This document shows, piece after piece, positions 1,998 through 32,245 of a stretch of 64,000 nucleotides of DNA. A program made the translations under genes and the position numbers. The DNA comes from Tubulanus polymorphus (Eukaryota; Animalia; Nemertea), in the NCBI RefSeq assembly GCF_964204645.1, contig NC_134027.1, positions 15,966,485-16,030,484 on the forward strand, written 5' to 3'. The notes under the pieces are model-generated. The model saw only the letters and a program-made list of their open reading frames with translations, searched no databases and had not been told where the DNA came from. Position 1 is the stretch's first letter. Every line of letters starts with the position of its first letter.

Positions 1998-2086
1998 AGT
2001 AATAGGAAATGTGTTGTTTCATACCAGAGGTCGAAGGTCGAGACACCACTCATCACCACAAGTAATTTTTTTCCCTTATAAATGGG
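1998..2086 (+). repeat. Left TIR of element A
   Basis: agtaataggaaatgtgttgtttcataccagaggtcgaaggtcgagac...taaatgg is the near-perfect reverse complement of ~26844-26936. Confidence 0.9.
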
Positions 2087-4293
2087 GGAGAATGAACACC
2101 AGCCAGAAAATAATAATGTTAATAAAAATCAATATTATTGCCAATATTGTAAAAAATACATCGATAAATCCCAAAAATCACGACATGAAAAAACTGCAAA
2201 TCATATAAAAAATGTAATAGATTTTGAAACACTAGATAATACAAATGAAAGAAAAGAACGATTAGATGATATGAATGTGGATGAAATAAAATGTGAAGTT
2301 TGTGATGAATTTATAACAAAAAGGAATTATAATAGACATCTCGAATCACAAAAACACCATCAAAATTTGAGTAATAATGTTTTAGGAAAAGATTATTTTG
2401 ATAATAAACCTCAAAAAGTAAAAAAACCAACTTCAAAAACTAAATCCATTTCAAATAAAGCTTACATGGAAAATGTTAGAAATTATATTGATTCACTAGA
2501 AATAAAAGATACAATTGAAATTTTAGAAACATTACATAGTAAAATTGGTCCTGCAGCTATTATATTTAGATTTTTTGAAGGTACAACAATAGAAGATTAT
2601 AGCAAATTTAATGAAATAATAGAAAAAATACTAGATTTGATAACAGATGTTGAATATCCAAAAATTAGTATCTCTGGGAAAGTAAGTTTTTTAAAGTCAG
2701 AAGAGAAAATGGATTATAATATTCAAACACTCTCTGAAGAAATAATTTCAAAAACGCAAATAAAAGAGAAGTTAGAAAAAATATTTAATGAATTTAAACG
2801 TCATATTGAAGAAAGATATTTTGAGGGTTCTGGTTTATCATTAAATGAAATTATATTTTTAGATTTAAATGTTTATAATACAAAAAACTTCAAAAAGTAA
2901 AACAATGTTTAAAAATGATTCAAACTTTACAACAGAAAAGGATATTAAAGCATCATCTTATATTAAATTACCATTTACAACAAAAGCAGTAATACATGTT
3001 CAAAATGAAGATAATAAATGTTTTCTATGGTCAATTATTAGTTGCTTACATCCAACAGAAGATATTACACATAGTTTTAGAATAACAAATTACCGGAAAT
3101 ATGAAACATTATATAAAATTGATCAATATCCAGTAACTATAAAAATGATTTCTAAAATAGAAAAAGTTAATAATTTAAAAATAAATGTATTCGTATTAAT
3201 GCAATTACCAAAGACAAAAGGTGAAAATATTAAAGATTATACATTGGAAGCTTTATATTTAACAGAATATTATGATGATGAAAATGCTATAGATTTGTTA
3301 TATTACAAAAAAGATGAAAATGAACATTATATGTGGTTAAAACAAATTGATTTATTCTTTAGAACAGAAAGTGATCACCATAATAAAATTTATCTATGTA
3401 GAAAATGTTTATCTAAATTTAGAACCGAGAATGCGTTACTAAAACATAAAGAATTATGTGATAATAAAGATTTTTGTAAATTAATAATGCCAACAGAAAA
3501 AGATTATAAATTGAAATTTACTAATCATAAATTTAAGAATATTGTTCCATTTGTAATTTATGGGGATTTTGAATCGTTGAATAAAGAATTAACTGATCAA
3601 GATAGAAAAGAAATATATAACAAGAAGCAATTATTAAAATCAATGGATAAAGTAAATGAATTAAATGAAGACACAATACAAGACCCACCAATTATAAACA
3701 CAATTAAAAAAGTTCATCAAAGAGCTGCTGCTTATGGAATTTATATAAAATCAAATTATCCTGAATAATATGAAAGTCAATATATCTCTTTTAGAGGTGA
3801 AGATGTAGTTAATAATTTTTGTAACAAAATAATTGAATTAGAAAGTGATTTTGCAGAATTATTAAACAAAAATAAAAGAATAGTTATGACAAAAGAAGAT
3901 GAAATTGATTTTAATTATGCAACCCATTGTTGTTATTGTGAAAAACGTTTTTATTCATTTGATAAAAAAAGTTAGAGATCATGATCATTTAAATTCAAAA
4001 TATCGTGGAGCTGCTCATGAAGATTGTAATTTACAAGCTAAAAAAGTAAATTTCGTTTCAATATTACTTCATAATTTATCCGGCTATGATACCCATCTAT
4101 TTATAAAACAATTATCGGGAAAATTGGGCGCAATTAATCAAGAAATAGAAGAATATAATGCTATGAATGGTGTGAATGTAAGAAAATATGATTTTAACTT
4201 ATTAGCTAAAACATCTGAAATTATATATCATTTCAATTTGGTTGCATTAGATTTTTAGATTCTTATAGATTTCTAGCAAGTTCATTAGATAAT
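2082..4293 (+). pseudogene. polB: Element A pPolB, 5' part (Zn fingers, terminal-protein region, exonuclease, endonuclease VII/HNH insert)
   Basis: Motifs EGSG, NEDNKCFLWS, PFVIYGDFES, RDHDHL..YRGAAH..CNL, HNLSGYD, DSYRFL. Frameshifts and stops present. HNH-type (group 2) pPolB. Confidence 0.92.
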
Positions 4294-4699
4294 AGTAAAA
4301 GGGGTATTAGGCTTTCAAATCAAAGGTTGAACGGTCGAGTGAGTAAAAAATGAAAAATATGAAAATAATAACAATTTCTACTTGAAATACTCGCGAAACT
4401 CATAAAAAATGAAAAATAATTCTCGCACACTCGAATTTTTCATTTTCTACTCGCTAGAAAAGGTGTGAGTAAAGTGTGAGTGAAATAAATTCTCGCACGC
4501 TCGAATTTATTTCACTCACACTTTACTCACACTTTTTTCTAGCGAGTAAAAATGAAAAATAAATTCTCACACGCTCGAATTTATTTTTCATTTTTTATGA
4601 GTTTCACTCCTAATTCAAATAGAAATTGTTATTATTTTCATATTTTTCATAATTTACTCACTCGCCCTTTCAACCTGAAAGCCTATTACCCCTATTACT
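4294..4699. repeat. ~405-bp self-complementary terminal unit (left)
   Basis: Starts agtaaaaggggtattaggctttc, ends gaaagcctattacccctattact. Contains three internal aattct-loop-gaattt hairpins. Confidence 0.9.
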
Positions 4700-4943
4700 C
4701 TTAAGATATTCATATATATGGATAAGATATATATGAATAACATATAAATTGATAGATTATTCAATATAAAAGTGAGTAAAAGTAACAAGTAATTAACAAG
4801 TTCTTATAGAATAGATATATAGATATATTTTAAACATATTTCAATATTTATATTTGTATGAGTTAGATTTTTAAACATAAAAAGTGACGAGTAATTAACG
4901 AGTGAAATAATTCATATTTAAAACAGTGAATATTTATATTTGA

Positions 4944-5591
4944 ATGAGTTTTAATAAAAATTTTGTTATAAAAATGAAGAAAGAAGAAGAACCCAACTTT
5001 AAAATCGAAATCAATGAAACCAATAAATCATTTTCACAGTTTAACATTAAAAATTATATTTCAGCAACAAATTTAGTGTCCGCAAGACATTATAAAATTG
5101 AAAATATTACTGTAATTAATCAAATATTATCAAATGAAACATATTTAATTACTAAACTAATTGATACTTTTGATAATGGTGTTAAAAATCCTAAAGTATT
5201 CAATACAGTTTTAAATTTTAAAGGAACTTTAGATGAAAACATAATAAATATACTTCAAACCCCTTTCAATGAAAGAAATGATGATATAATACTTTCAAAA
5301 GATTACAATGATTTGATTAACTTAAGAATTGAAAAAAGACAATTATATTATTTCAAATTTGATAATAAACAAATTATCTATAATGAAAATTCATCAAATA
5401 TTGGTATTCAATGTGAATTAGATAATGAAAAATCATTTAAAGATATTGCAGTTCAATGTAATTTAGATGATGAATTTAGAAAATTCAATCCTAATGAAAA
5501 AGTGCATTGTTATTGCGGAGGTAAATATTTAAAATCACATAAATCAAAGCATTATGAAACAATTAAACATAAAAACTGGCGTAAAGAGTAA
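4944..5591 (+). CDS. Element C TIR-encoded protein with C-terminal Zn finger
   Basis: Intact 215-aa ORF ending CYCGGKY..HKSKHYETIKH. Duplicated in the right TIR. Confidence 0.75.
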   Translation: MSFNKNFVIKMKKEEEPNFKIEINETNKSFSQFNIKNYISATNLVSARHYKIENITVINQILSNETYLITKLIDTFDNGVKNPKVFNTVLNFKGTLDENIINILQTPFNERNDDIILSKDYNDLINLRIEKRQLYYFKFDNKQIIYNENSSNIGIQCELDNEKSFKDIAVQCNLDDEFRKFNPNEKVHCYCGGKYLKSHKSKHYETIKHKNWRKE

Positions 5592-5644
5592 CAATTCTAC
5601 ATTACAATTATTGAATTGAGTTAAATGGTTTAAATATCTAATAG

Positions 5645-7270
5645 ACTGTTAAAATGATAAATTGTTTAACTGTTTGACAGTTGAAATGATAAATTGTTTG
5701 GCAGTTGAAATGGTAAATTGTTTGACAGTTGAAATGATAAATTGTTTGACAGTTGAAATGATAAATTGTTTGGCAGTTGAAATGATAAATTGTTTGACAG
5801 TTGAAATGATAAATTGTTTGACAGTTGAAATGATAAATTCTTTGATAGTTGAAATGATAAATTGTTTGACAGTTGAAATGATAAATTGTTTGACAGTTGA
5901 AATGATAAATTGTTTGGCAGTTGAAATGATAAATTGTTTGACAGTTGAAATGATAAATTGTTCGACTGTTGAAATGATAAATTGTTTGACAGTTGAAATG
6001 ATAAATTGTTTGACAGTTGAAATGATAAATTGTTTGACAGTTGAAATGATAAATTGTTTGACAGTTGAAATGATAAATTGTTTGACAGTTGAAATGATAA
6101 ATTCTTTGATAGTTGAAATGATAAATTGTTTGACAGTTGAAATGATAAATTGTTTGACAGTTGAAATGATAAATTGTTTGGCAGTTGAAATGATAAATTG
6201 TTTGACAGTTGAAATGATGAATTGTTCTACTGTTGAAATGATAAATTGTTTGACAGTTGAAATGATAAATTGTTTGACAGTTGAAATGATAAATTGTTTG
6301 ACAGTTGAAATGATAAATTGTTTGACAGTTGTAATGATAAATTGTTAGACAGTTGAAATGATAAATTGTTTGACAGTTGAAATGATAAATTGTTTGACAG
6401 TTGAAATGATAAAATTTTTACAGTTGAAATGATAAATTGTTTGACAGTTGAAATGATAAATTGTTTGGCAGTTGAAATGATAAGACACAGTTGAAATGAT
6501 AAATTGTTTGACAGTTGAAATGATAAATTGTTTGACAGTTGAAATGATAAATTCTTTGATAGTTGAAATGATAAATTGTTTGACAGTTGAAATGATAAAT
6601 TGTTTGACAGTTGAAATGATAAATTGTTTGGCAGTTGAAATGATAAATTGTTTGACAGTTGAAATGATAAATTGTTTGACAGTTGAAATGATAAATTCTT
6701 TGATAGTTGAAATGATAAATTGTTTGACAGTTGAAATGTGAATTGTTTGACAGTTGAAATGATAAATTGTTTGGCAGTTGAAATGATAAATTGTTTGACA
6801 GTTGAAATGATAAATTGTTCGACTGTTGAAATGATAAATTGTTTGACAGTTGAAATGATAAATTGTTTGACAGTTGAAATGATAAATTGTTTGACAGTTG
6901 AAATGATAAATTGTTTGACAGTTGAAATGATAAATTGTTAGACAGTTGAAATGATAAATTGTTTGACCGTTGAAATGATAAATTGTTTGACAGTTGAAAT
7001 GATAAATTTTTTACAGTTGAAATGATAAATTGTTTGACAGTTGAAATGATAAATTGTTTGGCAGTTGAAATGATAAGACAGTTGAAATGATAAATTGTTT
7101 GACAGTTGAAATGATAAATTGTTTAACAGTTAAAATGATAAATTGTTTGACAGTTGAAATGATAAATTGTTTGACAGTTGAAATGATAAATTGTTCGATT
7201 GTTGAAATGATAAATTGTTTGACAGTTGAAATGTTAAATTGTTTGACAGTTAAAATGATAAATTGTCTAG
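5645..7270. repeat. 24-bp tandem array (ttgacagttgaaatgataaattgt), about 67 copies
   Basis: Directly visible. Variant units recur at higher order. Confidence 0.97.
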
Positions 7271-7392
7271 CTGTAAATTTAATTGTTATTTGATTTAATC
7301 ATTTAAAAGTTTAATATTTTAAAAATGATTACAAATATTTAATTAAAAACTAGCAAATATTTTATAAACTGTTTAATTTTTCTCTTAAATAA

Positions 7393-7611
7393 ATGGATGG
7401 TTTCATCCCAACTGGGAAAAGTGATTTGAAACATTATTTTGTAGCAGGCGGATTAATATTGGCTGCGCTTTTCTTTTATTATGAAAATATCAGTAAGGAT
7501 TTGATGAATGAAAATAATAAATTGAGTAAAAAATTAAAGAAGTTAAATGGAAACAATCACAGAAATAAAAAGAATAAAAAAGTTAATTTAGAAAATGATT
7601 TAGAGGATTAA
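7393..7611 (+). CDS. Element C small membrane protein
   Basis: TAAATG start, hydrophobic YFVAGGLILAALFFYY segment, basic tail. Confidence 0.55.
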   Translation: MDGFIPTGKSDLKHYFVAGGLILAALFFYYENISKDLMNENNKLSKKLKKLNGNNHRNKKNKKVNLENDLED

Positions 7612-7649
7612 AACAGCATCTTTTAATTTCATATATTTTGACTATAAAA

Positions 7650-7952
7650 ATGAGTGAAAATATATTAAACTTATTACATCTAATATATAAAAATCAACAG
7701 AATATTAAATCAATTATTATGCTTACAGGTTTATTTTCTTTTTCAATTTATAGTATAAAACAGTTGTTAGAATTCTATGATAGTTGTAAAATTAGATATA
7801 CAGAATTGAAAGAAAATATAAATTATCTATCAGATCGAATAAATAATATTAAATGCTGTGAAATATGTAATAAAAGATATAAAAATTTAAAGAGTTTAAA
7901 ATCTCATAAATATATTCATGAATTAGATGATAAACTGTATAATTCAAATTGA
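7650..7952 (+). CDS. Element C protein with hydrophobic segment and C2H2 Zn finger
   Basis: CEICNKRYKNLKSLKSHKYIH; ATG at 7650. Confidence 0.6.
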   Translation: MSENILNLLHLIYKNQQNIKSIIMLTGLFSFSIYSIKQLLEFYDSCKIRYTELKENINYLSDRINNIKCCEICNKRYKNLKSLKSHKYIHELDDKLYNSN

Positions 7953-8199
7953 GAATAAGACTGTTAAATTGGTTGAAAATATAAAAATAGATAATATTAT
8001 AACTATTTCTATATTTAGATTAATAATTTATATTTATAATTATTATAAAACTAATTTATATATGTATGTACTAGACGTACGAGTAAGAAAGTAAGATTCT
8101 TACCAAGAAAGTAAGAAAGTAAGAATCTTGCCAAGAAAGTAAGATTCTTGGATTCTCTTTACGCCAGTTTTAATGTTATTATGTTTCATAATGCTTTGA

Positions 8200-8796
8200 T
8201 TAATGTGATTTTAAATATTTACCTCCGCAATAACAATGCACTTTTTCATTAGGATTGAATTTTCTAAATTCATCATCTAAATTACATTGAACTGCAATAT
8301 CTTTAAATGACTTTTCATTATCTAATTCACATTGAATACCAATATTTGATGAATTTTCATTATAGATAATTTGTTTATTATCAAAATTGAAATAATATAA
8401 TTGTCTTTTTTCAATTCTTAAGTTAATCAAATCATTGTAATCTTTTGAAAGTATTATATCATCATTTCTTTCATTGAAAGGGGTTTGAAGTATATTTATT
8501 ATGTTTTCATCTAAAGTTCCTTTAAAATTTAAAACTGTATTGAATACTTTAGGATTTTTAACACCATTATCAAAAGTATCAATTAGTTTAGTAATTAAAT
8601 ATGTTTCATTTGATAATATTTGATTAATTACAGTAATATTTTCAATTTTATAATGTCTTGCGGACACTAAATTTGTTGCTGAAATATAATTTTTAATGTT
8701 AAACTGTGAAAATGATTTATTGGTTTCATTGATTTCGATTTTAAAGTTGGGTTCTTCTTTCTTCATTTTTATAACAAAATTTTTATTAAAACTCAT
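8200..8796 (-). pseudogene. Right-TIR copy of the 4944 ORF, premature stop in the Zn finger
   Basis: Near-identical protein; stop after LKSH. Confidence 0.8.
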
Positions 8797-9040
8797 TCAA
8801 ATATAAATATTCACTGTTTTAAATATGAATTATTTCACTCGTTAATTACTCGTTACTTTTTATGTTTAAAAATCTAACTCATACAAATATAAATATTGAA
8901 ATATGTTTAAAATATATCTATATATCTATTCTATAAGAGCTTGTTAATTACTTGTTACTTTTACTCACTTTTATATTGAATAATCTATCAATTTATAAGT
9001 TATTCATATATATTTTATCCATATATATGAACATTTTAAG

Positions 9041-9444
9041 AGTAATAGGGGTAATAGGCTTTCAGGTTAGAGGTTGAAAGGGCGAGTGAGTAAATTATGA
9101 AAAATATGAAAATAATAACAATTTCTATTTGAATTAGGAGTGAAACTCATAAGAATGAAAAATAAATTCGAGCGTGTGAGAATTTATTTTCATTTTTACT
9201 CGCTAGAAAAAAGTGTGAGTAAAGTGTGAGTGAAATAAATTCGAGCGTGTGAGAATTTATTTCACTCACACTTTTTCTAGCGAGTAGAAAATGAAAAATA
9301 AATTCGAGTGTGCGAGAATTATTTTTCATTTTTTATGAGTTTCGCGAGTAATTCAAGTAGAAATTGTTATTATTTTCATATTTTTCATTTTTTACTCACT
9401 CCACCGTTCGACCTTTGATTTGAAAGCCTATTACCCCTATTACT
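9041..9444. repeat. ~404-bp self-complementary terminal unit (right)
   Basis: agtaataggggtaataggctttc...gaaagcctattacccctattact; inverted copy of 4294-4699. Confidence 0.9.
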
Positions 9445-9450
9445 GATAAT

Positions 9451-12251
9451 TTAGCAAAAAGTTTAGTTGATAATGATTTTGTTATAACTCGATATTATTG
9501 TCCAAATGAACAAGATTTTAAATTATTGAGATATAAAGGTGCAATTCCTTATTCAATTTATAAAACACACAATGATTTTAATGTAACAGAATTATTAAAA
9601 GATCAATTTTATGATCAATTAAAAGAGGAGTATGTGAAAGACGAAGTGTTTAATAGAACATTAAATATTTGGAACCATTTTAAGATGAAAAATCATGGTG
9701 AATTAGTTGATTTATATTTAAAATCAGATGTTATGATATTGGCTGACATATTTGAAAAATTTAGAGAAGTTAATTTGAATCATTTTAATGTTGATCCTTG
9801 TTATTGCTACTCTAGTCCTGGTTTAACCTGGCAATGTGGTTTAAAATATACAAATGTAGAATTAGATTTATTAAAAGAACCAGACATGGTTTTATTATTT
9901 GAAAAATCAATTAGAGGTGGAATTAGTGGTGTTATGGGAGATAGATATTTTGAGGCAAATGATGAATATAAATTATTATATATTGACGCCAATAATTTAT
10001 ATGGTTGGGCAATGATGCAACCTCAACCATATAAAATTTTTATATTAACAGAAGTTGAAAATGATGATAAAACTGATTGGGAAAGCGCAATTGCGAGTTT
10101 AAAAGATGAAGCACCAATTGGTTATTTCTTTGTAGTTGATTTAGAATATCCTGAAAATATAAAGTTTAAAACAAGAAACTTACCTTATTGCCCAGAACAT
10201 TTAACTGTAGATGATAGTTATTTAAGTGAATACCAGAAGAAAATAAAACCGAAAGATCATGTTTTTACAGAAAAATTAATACTTCCTCAAAATAATAAAT
10301 ACAATTATATCGTTCATTATAGAATGTTAAAATTTTATCTTAAACAAGGAATGAAATTAAAGAAAGTACATAGATATATTGAATTTAATCAATCGATGTG
10401 GTTAGAAAAATATATAGATTTCAATACTCAACAGAGAACCATATCAAAAACAAGTTTTGAAAAAGATTTCCTCAAATTAATGAATAATAGTTTTTATGGT
10501 AAAACATGTGAAAATATTAGAAATAGAAATGATATTGAATTAGTAAATAATTCTGAACGATTAAGACATTTACAATCAAGTCCTAAACATTTAGGAAATA
10601 AAAGATTTGAAGATAATTTAACAGTTGTTAAATTAAAAAGAACGTCAATGAAATTTAATAAACCTATATTCATTGGTTCAACTGTTTTAGAAGTATCAAA
10701 ATTATTAATGTATGATATTTATTATAATGTTTTACAACCACTTTTTGGGGAAAAGCATATTGAAATATTATATTTTGATTCTGTAACAGCTGACACCCCA
10801 ATATTATTAAAATGTAATGATAAAATATTGATAAGAAGAATTTCAGAAATAATTCCAAAACAAAATGAATGTTATATTTCATATGGTGAAAAAGAATTAA
10901 TACAAATAAATGAATTAATGGATGTTTGGACAAGAAATGGATGGAAAAAATTAAAGAATATTATTCTTTGAAACATGAAACAAATAAGAAAATCTGTAGA
11001 GTTAGAACTAAATTAGGGTTTGTAGATGTTACAGAAGATCATAGTTTAATTAAACGAAATGGCTATGAAATAAAACCAACTGATATAAAAATTGGAGATG
11101 AATTATTACATAAAAGATTTTTCCAAAGAATGAATCATATGTCATTCGACGAAATTATTGATAATATTTATAATATAGAACCTGAAACATTAGAAGAAAA
11201 AGAATATTTTATCAAAGAATTTTTCATGGGTGATGGTTCAGCAGGTGTGTATAATTATGTTTGGGGTAATAAATATTGTTGGTATTTATGCAATCAAGAT
11301 TTGAAATTATTAGAAAGAATTAAGAAATTCAGTGAAGAAGTTTATTCTCATAAAACATTTAAAATCATAGATGTTATGAAATCATCAGCAGTTTATAGAA
11401 TACTTGTAAATAATCCTAAAGATTTTGCTATAAGATATAATGATGAATTCTATATTCATGCAATAGTGAAAAGTAATACTTCAACAAAAGAAAAGATAGT
11501 ACCAGATTATGTATTAAATGCAAAAAATAATTTAAGAAAGTGGTTCTTCATTGGATTCTATGCCGCAGATGGCACTAAAAAATTTATAAAGGAAAAAAAG
11601 ATAACCTTTGCACAAAAGGAAAAGTTGCTATATCAGGATTAAATATATTATGCAGTTCATTAGGATTTAATATGAATATAGAATTAATTAAATCTAAACC
11701 AAATTGTTTTAATTTAAGGCATGTAGAAGAAGAATTAACAGAAGAAGTTAAAGATTTATTTGAAATATATAACCCATCAGATTATGTTTATGATTTATCA
11801 ACTGAAGATGGTACATTTAACTGTGGATTTCCATTAATTGCAAAAAATACTGACAGTTACATACTAAAAATAAAGACAAATGACATAACAAAAGACTTAA
11901 AAACATTAAAACATCATTTTGATTTTAGCAATTATCCCAAATATCATGAACTATTTAGCAATGATAATAAAAAGATTCCTGGTAAATTTAAAGATGAATT
12001 AGGGGGTGATGAAATGATTGAATTTGTTGGGATAAGAAGTAAAATGTATAGTTATAGAACAAAAGATCATGAAGCTAAAAAGTTAAAAGGAATAACAAAA
12101 CATGTGGTTGATAAACATATAGAATTTCAAGATTATATAAAGTGTTTATATAACTCAATTGTAATGAAACATAAAATGAATTGTTTAAGATCAGAAAATC
12201 ACGAGATGTATATTAATGAAGTTGAATAAAACATTACCTTATGGCCATTAA
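9451..12251 (+). pseudogene. polB: Element A pPolB, 3' part (polymerase domain, intein-containing)
   Basis: Motifs LYLKSDV, SIRGGIS, YIDANNLYG, KLMNNSFYGK, YFD..TDS, GKFKDE, KMYSY, KLKGI. A deletion removes the DDKR region before TLPYGH. Confidence 0.95.
10780..11848 (+). mobile_element. Intein with LAGLIDADG homing endonuclease in pPolB motif C
   Basis: YFD|SVTADTPILL (block A), VDVTEDHSLI (B), FFMGDG (C), FFIGFYAADG (E), YVYDLSTEDGTF (F), LIAKN|TDS (G). Two frameshifts; ~355 aa when repaired. Absent from the outer pPolB. Confidence 0.95.
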
Positions 12252-13575
12252 AACATAAAATCAATATCATCATACTCGAAATCACTATTGGCTTCTTCAT
12301 TTTCATTTAATTGTTCTTGTATAATTTGTTTAGGTTCTTCCATTTCATTTTTCTCATTTAAATAAAGTTCTATCTTGTACCACATTTCATATCGCTCTCT
12401 TTGTTTCTTTTTGTTTATTAATTCGTCAAATGGAATTATAATATCGATGTTTAAATAATTTACAATCTTATTTAAAAATAATTCATAACTAATTGAATCT
12501 GTTATTCTATTTTCCAAATGATACATTAATATTTGTTTGAATGTTTTTTTTATATTTTCCATATCTTCTTCTGTTAATTTAGGTTTTTCATAATAATCAT
12601 TAAATAATAAATATAAATACATTTTCTTTTGTTTTGTGTTAAATGTTGATGGAATAATTGTTTTTATAATATCTTTTTTAGTTATTTCACCATTTTTATT
12701 TTCTATTATTTTCATTTTTTCAAGCCATTGCTTATATTCTGGTGTATGATCTTCTAAGAAAATATTTTAAAAATTTCATCTAGATAATTTAATTTTGGTT
12801 CTATGAGAAAATCTCTCGTTTTTTCTTCACCCCATAAATTCTTTTGCCATCCACATTCATTACAAAATAACACAGTACCTTCTTGCCTTAAGGTCGCATA
12901 ATTACATTGTGGGCATTTTTGTTTATAATTTATTGGTAATAGATCTTCATTAAGCTCCTGGTATTTTCTTACGTTTTCTTTATGTTTTATTGTTCTATTA
13001 TGTAGATTTGAATTACTTGTTGTAATAATCAATTTACAATATTTACAATAATATGTTTTTCTTGTTAATTCATTATATTGTTTTTCTAACTTTTCAACTG
13101 TTTCTTCATTATCTGGTAACGTTTTCTGATATTTTATTTTTTCTAATAAACTATTTTTTCTTTAATTGAATTCAGTTTCAAATTTATTAGAAATTTTATC
13201 TATATGTATTTTACGAAATTGATGATTCTCCCAATCTTCTATATTTCCTGGACTAAATTTCATTCGACAAGGCTCGCAGATATGATCTTTTATATTATCC
13301 TTGTCATAGAATAAGAAAGGTCTTTTCCAAATAATTTCAGGTTCAACTTCAGCAGAATTACTATTACTTTCGTTACTATCAACATTAGCCGTTGCGCCAT
13401 TAATTTTACACTTCTCTGAATGTTTTTTAACATAATTTCTTGAGAATAATTTATTACATTTTGGGCAGTTTATTTTAGGGGGTTTATAATTTTCATCATG
13501 TTTTTTCATATGTCGAGCCATATTACGTTTTCTAAGAAGTTCACCACAAATTTCGCATGGTATCTTCTCATCCAT
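12248..13575 (-). CDS. Antisense Zn-finger ORF cluster (13162-13575, 12754-13032, 12248-12715), possibly one frameshifted gene
   Basis: CEIC..RH..KH, CPKC..KH..C, CEPC..H..IH, CPQC..CNEC in consecutive same-strand ORFs. Confidence 0.6.
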
Positions 13576-13644
13576 TAATTAAGGAAAAATTTTATTAAAA
13601 TTAATTTTTAGTGATGAGCGGTAATTTTTTTTATGTTATAAATA

Positions 13645-14387
13645 ATGTTAGAATTAAAAGAATACAGAATATTTGTTGAATCTAGAAGACTTACAAATTA
13701 TTGTGTTGATTTAAGATTAGTTAATATAAGTTTATGTAACTCGTTTTATAATGTATCAGATAAAACAAATGAACATAGAACCTTTTTTATTTATGATAAA
13801 ATTATACATGACTGGATTCATCTTATGCTTACACCAGGATTATATAATTTAGAAACATTAGAGCGAGAAATTTATAGAAAAGCTCGGATTATATTAGGTA
13901 GGGATTCTAAATTTAATATTAAATTCATAAAAAGTGAGAGCTCTAATAAAATTAAAATAAAGTTTGATGATGAAAATCTTATTGGTACTATTTTACCTTC
14001 ACGAAAACATGCTTACTTGGTAAAAAACCCTTTGCTAAACTGTTAGGAATTCCTCCAGATAAAATTATTGTCGGAAACACATACGGTATATCAAATTTAA
14101 TGCCTTTAACACACTTTTATATTTATTGCAATTTAATTGATCCTACAAAAACCTTTGAAGCAACTAAAGATAAAACTTGCAATTCTAGTATATTGAATAT
14201 TCTACCATTAAAAAATGTTAAACAATTTGGAACTCAAATAAATTATAATTTAACAGAATGTGATTTTAAACCTTGCATTCCATATTTCAATAATTTCAAA
14301 TTAGAAATAAGAAATCATAATGGTTATTTAATTGATTTAAATAACTTTCCTGTGATATATGAATTAGTTATAAGATGTAGAGAGTAA
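13645..14387 (+). pseudogene. Minor capsid protein (penton), frameshifted
   Basis: NSFYNV, PGLYNL, FYIYCNLID, LEIRNHNGYLIDLNNFPV. Intact homologue at 30885-31643. Confidence 0.8.
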
Positions 14388-14403
14388 TTTTTTCATTATA
14401 TAA

Positions 14404-14760
14404 ATGAATATAACTGTTGGACCGAGTATATGTTTTGGGTTTGATTTTAAACGTGAGAAAGAAATGAAATTTAACATTAATGATGTAATTACACATATTA
14501 AAAATATTGCATTTTCTAATGAAACAACATTTGAGTATGAAACAACAATAGATAAAGAAACTTTAAATGTAGAAAAGATTACTAATTCAATTAGAGAATC
14601 TTTAAGATTTTATGAATTAGATGAAGATTTTATCATCGATGATATTAAAAAAATAATAATTGAAATATATACAAATGAAACTAGTAATGAAATAAATGTT
14701 GATTTAATCATAAATAAGTTATCTAAATATTTTGAAGATGGTAATTTTTTTGATAAATAA
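14404..14760 (+). CDS. Polinton hypothetical protein
   Basis: TAAATG start; homologue at 31661-31999. Confidence 0.7.
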   Translation: MNITVGPSICFGFDFKREKEMKFNINDVITHIKNIAFSNETTFEYETTIDKETLNVEKITNSIRESLRFYELDEDFIIDDIKKIIIEIYTNETSNEINVDLIINKLSKYFEDGNFFDK

Positions 14761-14982
14761 ATGAGTGATAATAAGTGGATAATAACTGGATTATATAATG
14801 GAGCATTACTATCAGTTGGAACTGTTGGTTATTCAATGGTATTAAAAAAAGTATTCAAAATGGGAAGTGTTAATGTTGATAGATTTGATATAAATGATAT
14901 CTTAAAATTAACATTAGCAGTTACTTTATCTAATTTAACTACTGATTATTTGGAAAAACAAAAATATATTCCTCCCATATAA
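14761..14982 (+). CDS. Polinton small hydrophobic protein
   Basis: TAAATG start; nearly identical to 32000-32221. Confidence 0.75.
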   Translation: MSDNKWIITGLYNGALLSVGTVGYSMVLKKVFKMGSVNVDRFDINDILKLTLAVTLSNLTTDYLEKQKYIPPI

Positions 14983-15006
14983 ATACATAATTATTTTGCT
15001 AAATAA

Positions 15007-15458: not shown

Positions 15459-15477
15459 TAATTTTTTTTCTAAATAA

Positions 15478-15902: not shown

Positions 15903-15918
15903 TTTTTTAATTATATAA

Positions 15919-18739: not shown

Positions 18740-21299
18740 ATGAGTGGGAGTTATATAAGTCCTTCTAAGATTTCTAGAATATCTAATGCTATTAAAGCAG
18801 AAAGATCACATCATATAATTACTCATAATCCTTCAAATATTAATCCCGATGAAACTTTATATGTTAGAATTCCTAGATTAACACAAAATACTTTTTATGT
18901 TCCAAATAGTATTTATTTATCAGCCGATATAAAAGTAACCGGTAATAATAATAATTATGTTGTCGATAATGTTGGAAGATATTTGATTAAAAAATTAACT
19001 ATAAAGACTGGTCCCGAAACAGTTTTCTCATCAGATGATTATAATTTATTTGTGCATTATAAAGATTTATGGTTAACTAAAGAAAATAGAAATAATATGA
19101 TATTTCAAGGTATCCAATCAGAAAACCAAAATAAATTAAGATCTGAAGCCAATAATGCAGTAGTAACTAATGACGTAGATAATTTGATTAAAAAGATTTA
19201 TGGAAGCAAATATAAAATTCCATTAGATTTTGAATTGATAAATAATAATGCACCTTTATATAAATATGTAATTCAAGAAGATATTATATTTGAGATAACA
19301 TTTGCTCCTGTAAATGAAATTGTATTATCTAGCGTTGTTGCAAAAGGTAGAAAGTTTCTTTTGTCCAATGTCGTATAGCGCCGCCGCGGTCGAAAATCGA
19401 ACTAATCTGTCAAGTCGATAATTTTCTAAGTGAGAAGACGCCGCGTTCAGTTCGCAGTACACTGTACGTACAGTTTTTCGATACACTGCTGTTTCAACAA
19501 ATTTGTTTTGAAGTTGAAGTTCACAGCGCGCTATTCAGTTTTCAGAAGTAGAGGGCTAAAATAACATCATTCGTAAGATCTCAGATTGAATATTTTCATC
19601 AGATTCAGAGCTCAGTTCATTGTATAAAATGTGTTATTTCATGTATTAGACAGTTACTTCTATTACTCTGACAGGAGTTTTTATGTCATAATTTTTTTTT
19701 TTACCTCATGTGTAACTCAATAATAGCAGAGTTGATAGTTTAATTATCAATTATTAATTTATAAATAAATTAGTATTATTAATTTGATTAGTGGATTGAT
19801 TATTATTAAGAGGTATGACATTAAAAACATATATATAATGCAAAGATATGGATGTTATATATAATGCAAAGATATGGATGTTATAATGATAATGTATTTC
19901 TACTCGCATAGAAATGAGACTAAAGTTTTCCTGTTTGGATATTCTAAAAGCTTATAAGTCCTTTGCCAAGGATATGAATGGTTTGTGATGATATTATGTT
20001 TACTAAATTCATTTGTTGGTTGAACGATTTCAATTAATATCGCAATATTTAGCATTCGTGATATAATTAATATGATAAGAGATATGGCCATTTGTCTATT
20101 GTTCATGTTAGCAAAAGATTGCATTTGATATAGAAGGCTTTAAAATGTTTTGATGTATGGTTGAGATTTTCAAAATAAATGTTATGCTTACATGAGATAA
20201 TTGGAACTAGATGTTTTATTTCATTTTTATCAAGTATCGATGGATGAGAAGTCTTTCGACGATGTGCAGTTAGCCCATTAGAGTTTGCCTTAAAATACTT
20301 TACTCTCAGTCTAAACTGAATTTAATTCATACCGCCGTACAGTACCATAAAATTCACACTAAATCTTTAGCGTCATTGGAATAGGACGTCCCCTGTTTCA
20401 CATCCGGCAGGTGTGGTGCCGGTGGGTAAGTTTAATAAGGTACACCAAATCTATTAAAACGATCGCTATTTTAAAATCAAAACATCCCGAAGAAATTGGG
20501 GATTCGAACCTATCGGTTATATACTGGTACTCGGCGTCTTTCCGCTTAACAAAACATCGTCAATAACATTAGTTCTTATTATTGCTAAGAAGCGGCGCTA
20601 CTGGTACTGTCGATCGGACATTAGAAACTTTCTACCTTTTGCAGCGTTGTTAAAGATATGGGTTATAAATTATCGAATATATGTTTAGAATATAAGACAG
20701 TAACTAATGAAAATATTGCTAACACAATTCAAACTCAATACAATCAAGGATTTTCATTATTATATGATTATATTGATAAATCTAAAACTGTAACTATTAA
20801 TGCAAATGATGAAATAATCAATGATAATATTAACTTCCCAAGAAGATCTATTAAAGGTATATTAATATTTTTTACCATTGCAACATATTCTAATGGCGCA
20901 ATAAAGGTAGATAATTATTATAATCCTGAAATAACAAAAGTAGAAATAACTATCGAAGGAATAGCAAATAAAATATTTTGTCAAGGAATGAGAATGATAG
21001 ATCAATGGCCAGAAATTAGAAAACATTTTATGAATGAAAAAGTAAAATCATTTGAAAATTGTAATATTAATCAAATTGATTATTATGCCGGTAATAAATA
21101 TGCATTATGGTTAGATTTTAGAACAACAGAGGATAATTCATTACATGGTTCTGGGAAAAAACTACAGAACAATAAAGATGGAATACAATTATTCATGAAA
21201 ATGAAAAAAGGAAGCTTAAATTTTAAAATGCACATTTATATTATATCTGACGCACAATTAAATATTGTAAATTCACAATTAGATAGTATTCAATATTAG
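18740..21299 (+). pseudogene. Major capsid protein, interrupted by a 1.3-kb transposon
   Basis: 18740-19339 joins 20652-21299 in frame (IVLSSVV|KDMGYKLSNICLEY), ~415 aa. Motifs NPSNINP..LYVRIP, PRRSIKGILIFF, YALWLDFR. Size and position fit a Polinton MCP. Confidence 0.8.
19340..20642. mobile_element. Non-autonomous TIR transposon, 9-bp TSD (Mutator-like), copy 1
   Basis: 20-bp TIR GCAAAAGGTAGAAAGTTTCT; TSD AGCGTTGTT; inverted second copy at 39660-40958. Confidence 0.92.
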
Positions 21300-21329: not shown

Positions 21330-22451
21330 ATGGGTGGTAAAAAAACTCCTAATACTAAAGAACAATATTTAAGAAATTTATATTACAACCCTGAGAGTTC
21401 GGTTGCTTATTCTTCTAACAAAAATATATGGCGTCAAGTAAAACAAGATAAATTAGATAAGATAATCCCGCAAAATTTAGTTAAATATAAAGATATAAAT
21501 GAATTTATGTTAGAACAACCAACATACACAACACATAAAAAAATTGTTAGAAAATATAAAACTCGTAAAACTATGGTAAGTTATGTAGATCAACAGTGGC
21601 AAGGAGATTTAATTGATATGAAAAATGTTAAGAAGGATAATGATGATTATTGGTGGATATTGAATATAATTGATATTTTTAGTCGTTATGTATGGAGCTT
21701 CCCACTTTATAGAAAAGATGCTGTACAAACATCAAATGTTTTAAGAAAATTTCTTTCGGATGATAAACTAAAACCAGAAAAAATACAATTTGATGATGGA
21801 AAAGAATTTGATAATTCACTTGTTCGTGAACTCTTAGACGATCATAATATCAAATATTTTTCAACAAAATCGGATAAAAAAGCAGCAGTTGTTGAACGAT
21901 TTAATAGAACATTAAGAACAAGAATGTGGAAATATTTTACAGCAAATAATACTTTTAAATGGATTGATGTTTTACCAAAATTGATAGAAGGATATAATAA
22001 TTCTTATCATTCTTCTATTGGAATGAAACCTATTGATGCTAGAAAACCTGAAAATGCTGCAATTGTTTGGAATAATTTATATGGAGCATTTCTTGTAGAT
22101 GATTTTGGTGAACCTAGATTTAAAGTTGGTCAAAATGTTAGAATTTCTAAGTAAAAAAAGATATTTGACAAAGGATACGATCGAAATTTTACTAGGGAAA
22201 TATATAGAATAAAAAAGGTAATAACAACAAAACCATATGTCTATAAATTAGAAGATTTAGATGGTGAAGATGGCTACTTTTACGAAGAAGAATTAAGTTT
22301 AACTACTGAAAATCTAGAACAAGAATATAAAATTGCAAAAGTATTAAAAACATAAACTAATAAAAGAAAAAAATATTCTTTAGTAAAATGGGTTGGATGG
22401 CCAGATAAATTCAATGAATGGATATTATCAAGTAAAATTAAAAATATATAA
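21330..22451 (+). pseudogene. int: Retroviral-like (rve) integrase with chromodomain
   Basis: WQGDLIDM, IDIFSRY, FDDGKEF, VERFNRT; premature stop at 22152; downstream LVKWVGWPDKFNEWI. Confidence 0.93.
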
Positions 22452-23078
22452 ATGAATAAGGAATTATTTATATTTGAGCCTCATAATATGTTAATTTCTG
22501 GCGTAACAAATTGTGGAAAAACCTATTTTATATTATATTTATTAGAAACTGTTTATAAAAACTATTTTGATAATATAGTATTAATTTGTCCAACATATGA
22601 ATTTAATCAAACTTATGATAGAAATATTACTAGAAATAATAAATTTATTATATTAGACCCTAAAACAGTAAAAGAAAATTTAGATAATTGTATTAAAATA
22701 GCAATAGATATTTATAAAGGATCAAATACATTATTCATTATAGATGATTGCGCAAATTTACATGATTCAAAAATTAGAGAGAGTGAGTTATGTTATTTAG
22801 CATTTTCTGGTAGACATTTTGGGATAACAACTTGGGTTTTAAATCAAAAATATAATTCAATTGTTAAAGACTTTAGAGAAAACATTAGATTTCTAGTTTT
22901 ATTCTACAATAAAGATAGAAAATCGATGAAAAATGCACTTGAGGAAAATGATATTATTCCACATGATTTACATAATGAATATATGGATAAATTGAAAAAT
23001 ATTAAAAGATCAAAATTACTATTTAGATTACAACACCGATTTAAATATGAATCTATTCAAATTCAACTAGCTTGTTAA
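22452..23078 (+). CDS. A32/FtsK-like DNA packaging ATPase
   Basis: Walker A GVTNCGKT, Walker B FIIDD, GRHFGI, NQKY. Confidence 0.9.
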   Translation: MNKELFIFEPHNMLISGVTNCGKTYFILYLLETVYKNYFDNIVLICPTYEFNQTYDRNITRNNKFIILDPKTVKENLDNCIKIAIDIYKGSNTLFIIDDCANLHDSKIRESELCYLAFSGRHFGITTWVLNQKYNSIVKDFRENIRFLVLFYNKDRKSMKNALEENDIIPHDLHNEYMDKLKNIKRSKLLFRLQHRFKYESIQIQLAC

Positions 23079-25273: not shown

Positions 25274-26942
25274 ATAAAAATAAAAATAATGAATATCTAA
25301 AAATAACCTTAGTCGTTTTACGAACAATTACAATCATACAGCCAAACATCTGCTACATGTTATTATAAGAGAGTACTTCATTTGAATATTGTTCGATCAA
25401 ACAGGTGTTGCAATTCAACGTTGTTGTTATATTGGATAGCTAGCAGTTATATAATAAGCGCGCAGTACATACAACACACACAGGATACATTCTCTCTCGT
25501 GTTTAAAAGGAATATTTCGGTGTTTTTAAGGTAAGTTTTAGCAAAATTGCCCTATCCTCGACCTACAGAGTTTTCAGGGGATAAGTATCCTTTTATTGAA
25601 AGGCGCCACGGGACGCTTATCCCCAGTCATTTCTACTTACACCCCCGCGACCCACGTCAACCGGGATCTCCTTCAATGATAGGCAAAAATCACATTATAT
25701 TAAAGGCGCCTATTGTAATTTCTATCAATCTCCAAATTCGAAACCGAAGGAGAAACCCGGAGAGTGGACGAAGGTGCATTTTCGAAATGCCTCTGCTGGC
25801 CAGAGCTACTCCAGCGTTGGAATGAATTGCGTTATATACTTAGCTAAAACACCGAAGTAAATGTTACTGGTGTTTACTAAAGAAATATGTGAAATTTGAA
25901 ATTGTAAATTATTCCGAATGAAAAGAATATAGGAATGAAAACTGATAAATGAATTATGGATTTTTAACTTGATTATGATATAATTTTTAATCCAATTAGT
26001 AATCAATTATCCATGTTAATTGATTAACAAATTCAAATTCAAATATTCATTTTAGCATCACACCCAGTGCTGCCATCTTTCAATTTAAGAAAAAACTAAT
26101 AATAAGAAACGACTGTAATACAATATTCAAGTAAAAACTTCAAATTAAAAAAAAACAAAATAAATTAATAAAAATAATGAATATCTAGAATCCGAAATGA
26201 CTTATCTGGACAATTTAATTGCTCTGCATAGATAGACAAAAGTAGTGAGATATTCAATTATTTTTTTTGCTTTTTTTCTAAAATATTAATCCATTTTTTT
26301 ATTATCAATTTTGGAATTTCAGAAGTATTTTCATTTTTAATAACAGTCGTTTCAGAATTATAAATATCATGAAATTTATTTGATTTCTTATACCAATTAC
26401 ATCCAATCAAAATGAATACAATTACAAATCCAACTGTAAAATATAGACATTTATCAAATATTCTATTATTAGAAGGAGTAGAAATAACAATATTTTCACT
26501 ATTTTTATTAACATTTTTATTACTTATTTTTTCTTTTACAGCTTTTTTATATTCATTTTTTTCCATGATAGATTATTTTAAATCCTTCTAAATCTTTTAA
26601 TTCCTCTGTACTCAATGAAACCCATTTATCAGGTAAAATACTTTAAATTCTCGCGATGTACTAACATTACAGTAGCTTAAATTCGCTGATACTTTCTCTC
26701 CATATTTAGTTTTTATCTTTTCTAATTTCAATATTTTATGTTAAATTTCTTTTGCAACATCAATTAACTTTTTTATTTCAAATTTTTTTTTGTTTGCTGG
26801 TTTTATTCTGATATTTATTGTTGCTAAGAATGCTTTTCTATCTCCCATTTATTAGAAAAAAAAATAACTTGTGGTGATGAGTGGTGGGTGTCTCGACCTT
26901 CGACCTCTGGTATGAAACAACACATTTCCAATTACTGCTATT

Positions 26943-29900
26943 GAGTTTAAATTTCATAAAGGAAAAACATTAGAAGAAAATAAAAAACATTTAGAAAATA
27001 TGAAAAATATTATAAAAATAATTACAGATGTTGAATACCCTAAAATTAGTATATCTTCTAAAGTAAAGTTTATAAAATCTGAAGATAAACCAATATATAA
27101 TATAAATTCTCATTCACAACATATTATATCTAAACAACATATAGATGATAAATTAGATAAATGTTATAATGAAGTAAAAACTAAAATAGAAGAGAAATAT
27201 TTTGAAGGATCAGGTTTAATATTTGATGAAATAATATTTATGACTTTACATGTTTATAACACAAAATATAATAAGTTAACTAAATCAAAACCAATTGATG
27301 AAAATAATGTATCATATTATAAAGAACCAGATATTGAAGCATCGAGTTATATTAAACTACCATTTAAAACTAATGCTGTAATAAATGTACAAAATTTTGA
27401 TGATAAATGTTTTCTATGGGCTATAATTAGTTGCTTACATCCTGCAACTCTTAAGGTATAAGTATACTGTTAGAATTAAAAACATCCCAAAAATAGAAAG
27501 AGATAATAACATAAAGATAAATGTGTTTGATTTACTCAAATTACCAAAAACAAAAGGTAACAATATAAAACATTATACATTAGAACCTTTACATCTATCA
27601 AAAGATTATGATTCAAACGATGTTATAGATATATTATATTATGAGAATCATTATATGTGGATTAAAAGAATTGATTTATTTTTTAAATCAGAAAATGATT
27701 TTGATAATAAAATATATCTATGTAGAAAATGTTTACATAGATTCAGAACTGAAAGTGCATTATTAAATCATAAACAATTATGTGATAATCATGATTATTG
27801 TAAATTAGTTTTACCAAATGAAAAGGATGAAATATTAGAATTCATAAAATATGATTACGAAAATAAAGTACCATTTGTAATATATGGAGATTTTGAATCA
27901 TTAAATAAGGAACTAACTGATCAAGATAGAAAAGAAATATATTATAAAAGAAAGAAATTAAATTCTAATGAAAATGATTTTTCAGATGAACCACTAAAAA
28001 CAAATACACTTAAAAAGATTCATCAATCAGCTGCAGCTTTCGGGTTATATATAAAATCTGATTATCCAGAACTAATTGAAAGTGAATATTATGATTATAG
28101 AAATGAAAATGTTATCAATCATTTTTGTGACTTATTAATTGAATATGAAATAAGATTTAGTAAATTATTGAATACAAATATAGAAATTATAATGACAGAA
28201 GAAGATAAAGAAGAATTTGTGTTTGCAGGTAAATGTTATTATTGTGAAAAGATATTTAATTATAAAGATAAAAAGTAAGAGACCATGATCATTTGAATGG
28301 AAAGTTTAGAGGTGCTGCGCATGAGAATTGTAACTTACAAGCTAAGAAAATTAACTTTGTGCCAGTTATATTTCATAATCTATCAGGATATGATGCACAT
28401 TTATTTATCAAACAGTTATGTCATAAAATAGAAGAAATTAATAATGAAATAGAAAGATTAAATTCAAATAGATCAAAAGATAAAATATCAACTTATAAAT
28501 TTAAGATGTTAGCTAGAACATCTGAGAATTATATATCATTCCAATTTGGTTGCCTAAGATTTATAGATTCATATAGATTTTTAAATAGTTCATTAGATAA
28601 CTTATCAAAATCATTAGTTGATGATGAATTAAAAATATTAAAACAACACTATCCAAATAATGATGATTTCCAATTAATGAGATATAAAGGCGCAATTCCA
28701 TATTCTTTCTATAAAAATCATAATGATTTTAACATAACTGAATTATTGAAAGAACAATTCTACGATGAATTAAAAAATGAATAAGTTAAAGATGAAGTCT
28801 ATAATAGAACATTGAATATTTGGAATCATTTCAAAATAGAAAATCATGGACAATTATTAGATTTATATTTAAAATCAGATGTATTATTATTATCGGCTAT
28901 ATTTGAAAGGCTTAGAGATGTAAACCTAAAATATTTTAATATTGATCCATGTCATTGTTATTCATCACCAGGTTTAACATGGGATTGTGGATTAAAATTT
29001 ACAGATATAAAAATGGATTTGTTAACAAATATTTGTTAACAATTATTATTATTTAAAAAATCTATAAGAGGAGGAGTTTCAGGTGTATTAGGGGATAGAT
29101 ATTTCAATGTAAATGATAACCCTGGATATAAGTTATCATAGATAACATATATATAGATGCAAATAATTTGTATGATTGGGCAATGATGGAACCACAACCT
29201 TATGGAGTATTTGAAATAAGTGAAGTTTTACAACATGAAAATAATGACAAATTTGATTGGAAGAAAAGGATTCTAGATATTGCAGATGATTCAGATACTG
29301 GTTACTTTTTTGTTGTAGATTTAGAATATCCTGAACATATTAAATTTGAATCTAGAAATCTAGCATACTGCCCCGAACATAAAACTGTAACACATGAAGA
29401 ATTATCAAATTATCAAAAAAGAATTAAACCCGAAAATCATATTCATACAGAAAAGTTAATGGTAACTCAAGAAGATAAATATAATTATGTAGTACATTAT
29501 AGAATGTTGAAGTTTTATATGAATCAAGGAATGATCCTAAAAAAAGTGCATAGATATATTTCATTTAGCCAATCTAAGTGGTTAGAAAAATATATAGATT
29601 TTAACACCAAACAGAGAACTGAAGTTAAAACTGATTTCGAGAAAGATTTCTTCAAGTTAATGAACAATGCATTCTATGGTAAGACTTGTGAATATATTAG
29701 AAATAGAAATTACATTGAGTTAGTTAGTAATGGCAAAAGGATAAGGCATTTACAAACGTACCCTAAATTTATAGGTAACAGAATATTTGATGAAAATTTA
29801 GCCGCAGTTAAAATGAGAAGAACTTCTATGAAATTTAATAAACCAATTTATGTTGGAGCATCAGTTTTAGAAATATCAAAGTTATTAATGTATGAATTCT

Positions 29901-30487
29901 ATTATAATGTATTACAATCTCATTTTGGAGAAAAACATATAGAAATCTTATATTTTGATACCGACAGTTACATATTAAAGATAAAAACTAATAACATAAC
30001 AGATGATTTTAAAACATTAAAACATCATTTTGATTTTAGTAACTATCCTAAAGATCATGAATTGTTTAGCAATGATAATAAAAAAGTTCCTGGTAAATTC
30101 AAAGATGAATTAGGTGGTGAAGAAATGATAGAGTTCATAGGTATTAGATCTAAAATGTATAGTTATAAAACCATAACTCATGAATCAAAGAAATTGAAAG
30201 GAATTACTAAAAGTGTAGTAGAAAAGAATATTCATTTCAAAGATTACATCAATTGTATATTCAATGAAGTTAGAAAACATAAGATGAAATGTTTAAGATC
30301 AGAAGATCATGAAATGTTTATTGAAGAGATAGAGAAGATAAGTCTAAACCCATTTGATGATAAAAGATATATTTTAGATGATGGAATTCATACAGTTGCT
30401 TATGGTTGTAATTTAGATGAATACTTAAAATTTAAAAGAGAAGAAACAAAAGAGAACGAGATAATGAAAAGAATTCTAACGTGTTAA
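26943..30487 (+). pseudogene. polB: Outer pPolB main body (intein-free)
   Basis: Full motif set including YIDANNLY, KLMNNAFYGK, YFDTDS, DDKR. Several stops and frameshifts. Confidence 0.95.
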
Positions 30488-30870: not shown

Positions 30871-30884
30871 AATATGTAAAACAA

Positions 30885-31643: not shown

Positions 31644-31660
31644 TTTTTTTCACTATATAA

Positions 31661-32221: not shown

Positions 32222-32245
32222 ATGCATAATTATTTTACTAAATAA

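Follow-up and report, generated by a model that had tools for sequence, protein, structure and literature searches.

The window, which is the whole 64,000-nucleotide stretch analysed here, contains a Polinton whose protein-primed DNA polymerase (pPolB) gene is split within motif C by an insert of 1,069 bp. The insert is very probably a two-motif LAGLIDADG intein; intact copies of it are predicted to splice and are likely to home into empty copies, while the copy in the window is a broken relic. The boundaries of the insert were taken from direct reading of the junctions in two polymerase copies of the window, the interrupted copy A and the empty copy B, and place it exactly between the YFD and TDS codons on the forward strand. 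At the left junction, TATTTTGAT (YFD) ends at 10779 and is followed by TCT (Ser1) from 10780. At the right junction, AAAAAT (Lys-Asn) ends at 11848 and is followed by ACTGACAGT (TDS) from 11849, the position of Thr+1 of the C-extein. The coordinates of the features are given in Table 1.

Table 1. Features of the intein, of the surrounding Polinton (copy A) and of the second polymerase copy (B) in the window.
Feature	Position	Strand	Evidence and remarks
pPolB N-terminal part	2082..4292	+	three frames; zinc fingers, exonuclease start, HNH-like RDHDH motif
Nested 5.15-kb element	4294..9444	.	1.3-kb AGT-ended inverted repeats, 6-bp target duplication GATAAT; splits the pPolB gene
pPolB N-extein, polymerase part	9445..10779	+	motif A 9979-10005, motif B 10474-10503, YFD of motif C
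Intein coding sequence	10780..11848	+	junctions, empty-site paralog; two frame breaks in the window copy
N-terminal splicing (Hint) region	10780..11120, right bound approximate	+	Ser1 10780, block B TEDH 11031-11042, frame break inside
First LAGLIDADG-type helix, block C	11208..11237	+	motif reading
Second LAGLIDADG-type helix, block E	11544..11573	+	motif reading; second frame break downstream
C-terminal splicing region	11786..11848	+	block F VYDL (11786-11797), signature NCGFPLI, terminal Lys-Asn
pPolB C-extein	11849..12229	+	Thr+1, TDS, KGIT; shorter at its end than copy B
Candidate major capsid gene	18740..21299	+	split by 1.3-kb element; Atlas feature look-alikes
1.3-kb element within capsid gene	about 19340-20642		9-bp target duplication; sister copy 39660-40958
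Retroviral-type integrase	21330..22154	+	PF00665 E 8e-11
A32-type packaging ATPase	22452..23078	+	PF04665 E 5e-12
Second pPolB copy (B), in pieces	26916..30487	+	empty site YFD/TDS at 29959/29960

The residues of a class 1 intein are present in the window copy, namely Ser1, the block B TxxH, the block F Asp, the terminal Asn and Thr+1, and the two LAGLIDADG helices have acidic ends both here and in the homologs. The penultimate residue is Lys and not the usual, though not universal, His. A census of 217 members of the intein family gave HN in 126, KN in 83 and SN in 8, so that a penultimate Lys is a common variant. The sequence-only reading of this DNA had described an insert of ∼355 aa between YFD and TDS with Ser1, TEDH, two LAGLIDADG blocks, VYDL, KN and Thr+1, and this is confirmed by the junctions, the motifs and the empty copy B; its assignment to the pol-c site, the equivalent of YGD/TDS, agrees with the insertion between YFD and TDS of motif C. 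The two frameshifts which it placed in the insert were found as breaks near 10966-10973 and near 11613-11614, and the insert is spread over three frames (open reading frames 9424-10971, 10914-11642 and 11579-12229). The GC content is equal in the insert and the exteins, 24%.

Hint and LAGLIDADG profile searches, which had been suggested in the same reading, leave the pieces of the window intein under the cut-offs and carry the intact homologs above some or all of them. The window pieces scored 17.5 bits against a curated Pfam cut-off of 35.8 for Intein_splicing (E 0.004) and 19.2 against 22.5 for LAGLIDADG_3 (E 0.0015), TIGR01445 on the N-terminal piece gave 15.7 bits against a cut-off of 24.5 (E 0.02) and a search of the PDB by sequence returned weak intein matches (E 0.007). 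Among the intact pPolB homologs, P0002 and P0003 were above the cut-offs for Intein_splicing, Hom_end and LAGLIDADG_3, P0001 was above that for LAGLIDADG_3, P0001 and P0097 were below that for Intein_splicing, and P0002 and P0097 were above that for TIGR01445. The intact P0001 intein is 60% identical to the window copy over 356 columns, and P0001 covers the whole insert in three alignment pieces (61-63% identity, E 4e-105 and 2e-44). The insert is not a product of chance because copy B has an empty site and the intact P0001 aligns across the whole of it, and it can be taken as a genuine homing-endonuclease intein, an allele of pol-c. The earlier identification as an intein of this kind is thus supported by the profile matches of the intact homologs and by their predicted fold.

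The P0001 intein was modelled with a pLDDT of 90.6 and a complete Hint fold is predicted for it. The best PDB matches of the model were full-length, to TliVMA (7qsu, E 6e-18), 2cw7, 7qst, 1dq3 and PI-SceI, and its nuclease part matched the I-DmoI fold. The archaeal endonuclease inteins (TliVMA 7qsu, 2cw7, PI-PfuI 1dq3) and yeast PI-SceI have the same combination of Hint and two-motif LAGLIDADG parts (Foldseek E 6e-18 to 7e-10), but they are only 11-18% identical in sequence and their host proteins are mostly other ones. The four intact pPolB inteins shown all keep Ser1, TxxH, the block F Asp, Asn and Thr+1 as well as a full-length endonuclease with both acidic catalytic positions. The penultimate His is present (HN) in P0002 and P0003 and absent in the window copy, P0001 and P0004.

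Class 1 inteins splice by an acyl shift at Ser1, transfer to Thr+1, cyclisation of Asn and an O-N shift. In an intact copy the Ser1 acyl shift would be helped by the Thr and His of block B, and the transfer to Thr+1 followed by Asn cyclisation and the O-N shift would rebuild YFD-TDS. Without splicing, the catalytic aspartates would lie about 355 residues apart and the polymerase would presumably be dead.

Other identities of the insert were considered and ruled out. A Hedgehog-type or intein-like Hint domain is at odds with the presence of an endonuclease and with the splitting of motif C by an insertion, and a spliceosomal or group I intron with coding motifs throughout the insert and the existence of intact open homologs. 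An assembly artefact is incompatible with the finding of the insert in reads and in homologs, and a mislabelled giant-virus PolB with the phi29 fold and the Polinton neighbours.

The host protein of the intein is, as judged from its modelled fold, a protein-primed PolB. The polymerase part of copy B gave a predicted fold with a pLDDT of 87, and all nine of its PDB matches at E ≤ 0.001 were to phi29 polymerase whereas primer-dependent PolBs appeared at E > 0.3. The window polymerase pieces matched PF03175 weakly (E 0.001) and the intact homologs P0001 and P0002 matched it above the cut-off, without PF00136 or PF03104. Copies A and B are about 74-80% alike in DNA; the last 268 residues of the copy A N-extein are 69% identical to copy B, and the N-extein is 71% identical to P0122-P0124. 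An HNH-like domain lies upstream in the window polymerase (Endonuclease_7, E 0.039 on copy B and above the cut-off on P0097 and P0100), and pPolBs bearing HNH domains are known from oomycetes and nematodes according to the main text of PMC10748475.

By its gene content, pPolB with an rve integrase and a packaging ATPase, the element around the intein is recognisable as a Polinton. The claim of a protein-primed polymerase in an integrated Polinton, also made in the sequence-only reading, therefore holds on the phi29-type fold, the rve integrase and the A32 ATPase. The integrase aligns at 40% identity with the integrase segment of a Polinton protein that has a coral label. The capsid lead comes from Atlas look-alikes, a minority of whose members carry DJR-like/NCLDV capsid families, and neither a penton nor a protease gave a Pfam match among the window ORFs scanned. 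There is an AGT-type Polinton start at 1172 and no right end matching it was found in the window. The polymerase copy is a dead relic, with the two frame breaks in the intein, nested transposons, several frames and an early end; the sequence-only reading was silent on this damage to the polymerase beyond the two frameshifts. The sister copy of the 1.3-kb element sits in flanking DNA of higher GC. A profile search found Penelope-like and KDZ elements flanking the Polinton, and because of these and the nested insertions the setting is a eukaryotic chromosome. Penelope-like and KDZ elements occur outside animals too. The set of flanking transposons and the small membrane-protein genes of the element presumably resemble those of marine invertebrate Polintons. 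Judging from these features and from the coral-labelled matches of the integrase and the polymerase, the host is probably an animal; a protist, oomycete, fungus or alga is a less likely source, and with such a host the rule that animals are free of inteins would stand. One relative was found for the Penelope-like ORF, the RING ORF had no Atlas match above 0.77, none of eight window ORFs had an exact counterpart in the protein collection, and no Rfam families or tRNA were found in the window.

Other copies were examined in raw reads of run X5, which comes from another sample and study under the same species label and of which about 12% was used, as 150-base reads. Between 44 and 50% of the words sampled were present in each of four runs from a single study, and the ten listed runs represent one species label. 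The interval 9400-12300 received 7,857 X5 reads, 356 of them at ≥99% identity, 3,282 at 95-99% and 4,219 at 90-95%. Length differences from the window copy appear in 132 of about 139 reads at the first frame break and in 48 of 55-88 at the second, and the two breaks are thus peculiar to the window copy or to a few like it. The summed depth was 104-239 on the intein bins against 220-329 on most extein bins and only five reads skipped exactly 1,069 bases. This means that most A-type copies in X5 are filled; they are diverged, and no single copy is spanned by the 150-base reads.

The intein was sought in intact relatives. Searching with its middle piece returned 79 proteins, of which six were pPolBs or fragments of them (P0001-P0005 and P0044, 47-62% identity), 67 had PF00136 (primer-dependent PolB) and six were type II topoisomerases. 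Among the 120 best polymerase relatives the intein was present in four (P0001, P0002, P0134 and P0179), 88 were empty and 28 were left unclassed by the site pattern; two of the 120 are named to species, as a coral (35%) and as a bacterium, and we take the bacterial label to be misbinning. When the P0001 intein was compared with 1.84 billion representatives, 147 of the 150 matches listed were new, and these comprised 123 delta-type PolBs, four topoisomerases, one pPolB fragment (P0291) and 19 unclassed proteins. At least nine other 90%-clusters of pPolB have the intein (P0001-P0005, P0044, P0134, P0179 and P0291). P0001 is a whole pPolB of 1,693 aa with an in-frame intein of 354 residues, and P0002 a whole pPolB of 1,537 aa with one of 346 residues. 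The P0002 cluster occurs on contigs of up to 1 Mb, and a search with P0003 gave two viral contigs at 35-36% alignment identity. The intein is thus well settled as a lineage: at least ten pPolB groups have it, and within one polymerase subfamily it is widespread. The one-off capture envisaged in the sequence-only reading does not agree with this distribution, nor with the signs of repeated gain or loss described below.

The nearest match outside the pPolBs, at 40%, was L098 in a giant-virus bin with NCLDV capsid genes. Other near relatives were delta-type PolB inteins, many of them on contigs named as giant-virus bins, and at some giant-virus sites 3-4 of the 18 bases differ from the site in copy A. 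A subgroup of the outside inteins has the ending N-x-GFPLI-x-KN, common to the pPolB inteins, while most others end in AG-x-G. The full pPolB inteins have a mean identity of 44% with this N-x-GFPLI subgroup of giant-virus type (28 rows). The corresponding figure is 42% for two PolB inteins from archaeal MAG contigs, 40% for a further 167 inteins, 37% for eight of phage type and 32% for two distant archaeal ones. The best viral fold matches were to phycodnavirus, pandoravirus, marseillevirus and megavirus polymerases. Judged by identity, the shared C-terminal signature and the fold search, an origin from giant viruses is the best reading and a reasonably likely one. It is also fairly probable that a giant-virus PolB intein of the same site entered once, long ago, and that cycles of spread, decay and loss followed. 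The intein probably marks genetic contact between Polintons and large DNA viruses.

A phage or an archaeon may instead have supplied the intein from its PolB, or the pPolB lineage may be an old branch of the family and perhaps itself the donor, which we consider unlikely though it has some evidence in its favour. In some trees phage PolB inteins fall together with those of pPolBs. In a tree of 36 rows, from which 23 of 59 rows were omitted (among them every phage row, the fragment P0291 and three long rows from archaeal/bacterial MAGs) so that the long branches are out, the six pPolB inteins formed one group (100/100), sister to the N-x-GFPLI subgroup at 39/80. In a tree of 32 rows, which is the 36-row set with two phage and two archaeal rows added and eight others removed, the phage pair fell inside the pPolB group (99/99). 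The phage rows also adjoined the pPolB group in a FastTree of 218 rows, together with two archaeal rows, and in a quick tree of 59 rows. However, the phage branch in the 32-row tree is long (1.88), and a tree in which the pPolB inteins stand alone, with the phage branch outside their group, is as good (AU p 0.53); keeping pPolB, phage and archaeal rows together gave 0.39 and pPolB with the N-x-GFPLI subgroup 0.19, and none of the three was rejected. The similarity to the two PolBs on archaeal MAG contigs counts for such a donor, but the highest mean identity is to the giant-virus-type inteins and exceeds that to phage, and the best viral fold matches are to giant-virus polymerases. The NCLDV-type donor proposed in the sequence-only reading is therefore favoured by identity, C-terminal signature and fold, but it is weakened in that three placements pass the AU test and that phage PolBs, as well as PolBs on archaeal MAG contigs, have inteins of this family too.

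For homing, the endonuclease would cut another Polinton copy at its uninterrupted motif C, and a filled copy serving as the repair template would pass on the intein and some flank by gene conversion. As a genome has many Polinton copies, empty targets would be at hand without mating or co-infection. Filled and empty alleles were compared in two clusters. In the P0002 cluster (cluster 2, 136 members) seven of the 13 members examined were filled and six empty, and the seven filled alleles have an open frame of 1,537-1,539 residues. Comparison of six filled with two empty alleles gave 0-7 differences in 500 far-upstream residues and none in the following 50. Close to the site, by contrast, 4 of the last 10 upstream residues and 7-8 of the first 40 downstream residues differ. 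The filled flanks are closer to twelve empty polymerases of other clusters (6-7 mismatches in 25) than to their own empty allele (9). Such a footprint would be expected if the intein came from another Polinton subfamily along with some flank, though a similar pattern would arise from escape variants among the empty alleles. In the P0004 cluster (cluster 4, 121 members, four examined) the near flanks are identical in the filled P0097 and the empty P0100. In a polymerase tree of 36 N-exteins, from which 11 of 45 relatives whose site pattern was not matched were omitted, the state of the intein changes eight times, at least seven of these changes being forced by starred branches. Precise loss could give the same patchiness. 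The near-identical filled and empty alleles, the co-conversion-like footprint and the patchy spread together point to homing between Polinton copies. Homing would be incomplete or have stopped, because copy B is empty even though its insertion site and that of copy A are the same at all but 1 of 18 bases.

Points counted against a splicing and homing intein are the penultimate Lys, the empty copy B and the agreement of the deep splits between intein and polymerase trees, which also fits old vertical descent with losses. Such descent would imply a real intein which is no longer mobile: after a single ancient gain it would have passed down with the polymerase, maintained only by its need to splice, and would have been precisely lost many times. 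The deep congruence of the trees and the persistence of a near-perfect empty target in the window are in accord with this, as is the divergence of the intein among cluster 2 copies, which at 1.3% is about double that of the exteins (0.6%). Nevertheless, it is improbable given the full-length endonucleases with both acidic positions in the four intact inteins, the flank footprint of cluster 2, the identical flanks of cluster 4 and the filled state of most A-type copies in run X5. It is more improbable still that the insert does not splice, the filled copies being dead-polymerase passengers helped by empty copies and the nuclease a fused domain like the HNH/VSR domains of pPolB2, for while non-splicing nuclease domains do occur in Polinton pPolBs (PMC10748475, main text) and the penultimate His is missing from three of the inteins, the splicing residues are kept in the four intact ones, a complete Hint fold is predicted and the seven filled cluster 2 alleles keep their long open frame.

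PolB inteins have been described from the primer-dependent polymerases of archaea and giant viruses. Those at pol-c (Mimivirus, giant viruses, archaea) share with the present one the motif C site, the Ser1...Asn/Thr+1 arrangement, a LAGLIDADG endonuclease and a length of about 350 residues, with 35-40% identity to the nearest giant-virus inteins. The difference is that the intein here interrupts a protein-primed PolB (phi29 fold, PF03175), encoded by an element which integrates and occurs in many copies, and that the pPolB inteins form a group of their own. The site itself was defined from the Mimivirus YGD/TDS in the text available of PMC549080. The HNH and VSR domains of Polinton pPolB2 are likewise nuclease domains inside a Polinton polymerase, but as described in the main text of PMC10748475, where intein, Hint and LAGLIDADG are absent, they come without Hint, whereas here a complete intein splits the active site. 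PMC11071308, citing PMC10748475, suggests in its open text that the nuclease domains of polinton pPolBs stem from intein invasions. The inteins covered in the open text of Green et al. 2018 (PMC5784728), from fungal nuclear genes, algal plastids and large DNA viruses, are likewise associated with eukaryotes and lie in a replication protein; iridoviruses are among the carriers known there, but Polintons are not among the hosts given in that text. Metazoan genomes are said to be without inteins in the part of PMC8529194 that was available. The Polintons, Mavericks and adintoviruses as presented in the main text of PMC8502044 share with the window element its pPolB, rve integrase and A32 ATPase, and probably the capsid and AGT-type ends, but an intein is not reported in that text, and the window copy differs in being decayed and in that its protease and right end were not found. 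Inteins are mentioned in the text available of PMC12220804, PMC5718144, PMC4104785 and PMC3671162, none of them there in a pPolB. No Hint-containing intein in a pPolB was found in the literature searched, mainly open-access main text (supplements of surveys might hold one), and a full homing intein at pol-c in the pPolBs of Polintons is apparently undescribed so far, in agreement with the sequence-only reading.

With these inteins the pol-c allele reaches across the deep divide that separates protein-primed from primer-dependent PolBs, and the suggestion of intein invasion into Polinton polymerases, as made in the open text of PMC11071308, gains support at the level of sequence. As filled and empty alleles about 99% alike exist, the homing cycle becomes measurable inside one eukaryotic genome. 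It may be, though this whole course is put forward tentatively, that a self-splicing homing lineage crossed from giant-virus polymerases into the Polinton pPolB and is now a natural gene drive among the many copies in animal germlines; metazoan chromosomes would then house inteins after all, with a multicopy element both carrying them and supplying them with empty targets. The intein resides in a virus-like element and not in a host gene. It becomes testable whether inteins are kept out of animal genes by missing empty targets rather than by chemistry.

The polymerase gene of copy A, the decayed Polinton with the intein, contains a 5.15-kb element whose repeat arms each carry one ORF, with approximately 67 copies of a 24-bp unit forming a central array. 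This element is probably a non-autonomous Polinton derivative that was inserted into the polymerase gene. It is listed below with the other features of the window.

Nested, duplicated and flanking features of the window
Position	Feature	Details
4294-9444	5.15-kb element	1.3-kb AGT-ended inverted repeats; 6-bp target duplication
23569-28278	N-terminal part of polymerase B duplicated in inverse orientation	23637-25240 vs 26552-28111, 96% over 1.6 kb
33879-35205	205-bp tandem array	right edge of element B
51249-53798	hAT-transposase-like fragments	no Pfam match
54548-55339	KDZ-type CxC5 ORF	
55584-57695	degenerate telomere-like array, CCTAAAC/CCTAACC	2.1 kb
58091-58918	Penelope-like GIY-YIG ORF	61% to P0410, an RT + GIY-YIG protein
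60697-63482	pair of divergently oriented ORFs lacking introns	609 aa and 225 aa

The 609-aa ORF has a RING finger at its C-terminal end and the 225-aa ORF gave no Pfam match; the pair is possibly part of another viral insert.

The intein of another pPolB, P0134 (L174:10-4197), is broken within its endonuclease region and is a second case of decay besides the copy in the window. Inteins of the same family were also observed in PolBs, either cellular or viral, on two archaeal MAG contigs, one from Promethearchaeota and one other (L233:3189-6497 and L236:3189-6548), where they branch among the giant-virus-type inteins. Phage-type PolBs (L028, L029, L036, L226-L230 and P0073) carry them between GD and TDG, type II topoisomerases (P0013, P0058, P0077 and P0398) at the EGD/S and DQD/TDG sites, and the PolBs P0267, P0352 and P0357 in motif C with the insertion two residues further along.

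The structural-gene DNA of copy A (13644-16754) is 84% identical to that of copy B, the second Polinton (30884-33871), with one 790-bp block reaching 96%. The polymerases of the two copies are only 74-80% alike. As the identity of the structural genes exceeds that of the polymerases, the comparison of these sequences hints that Polinton subfamilies have recombined.
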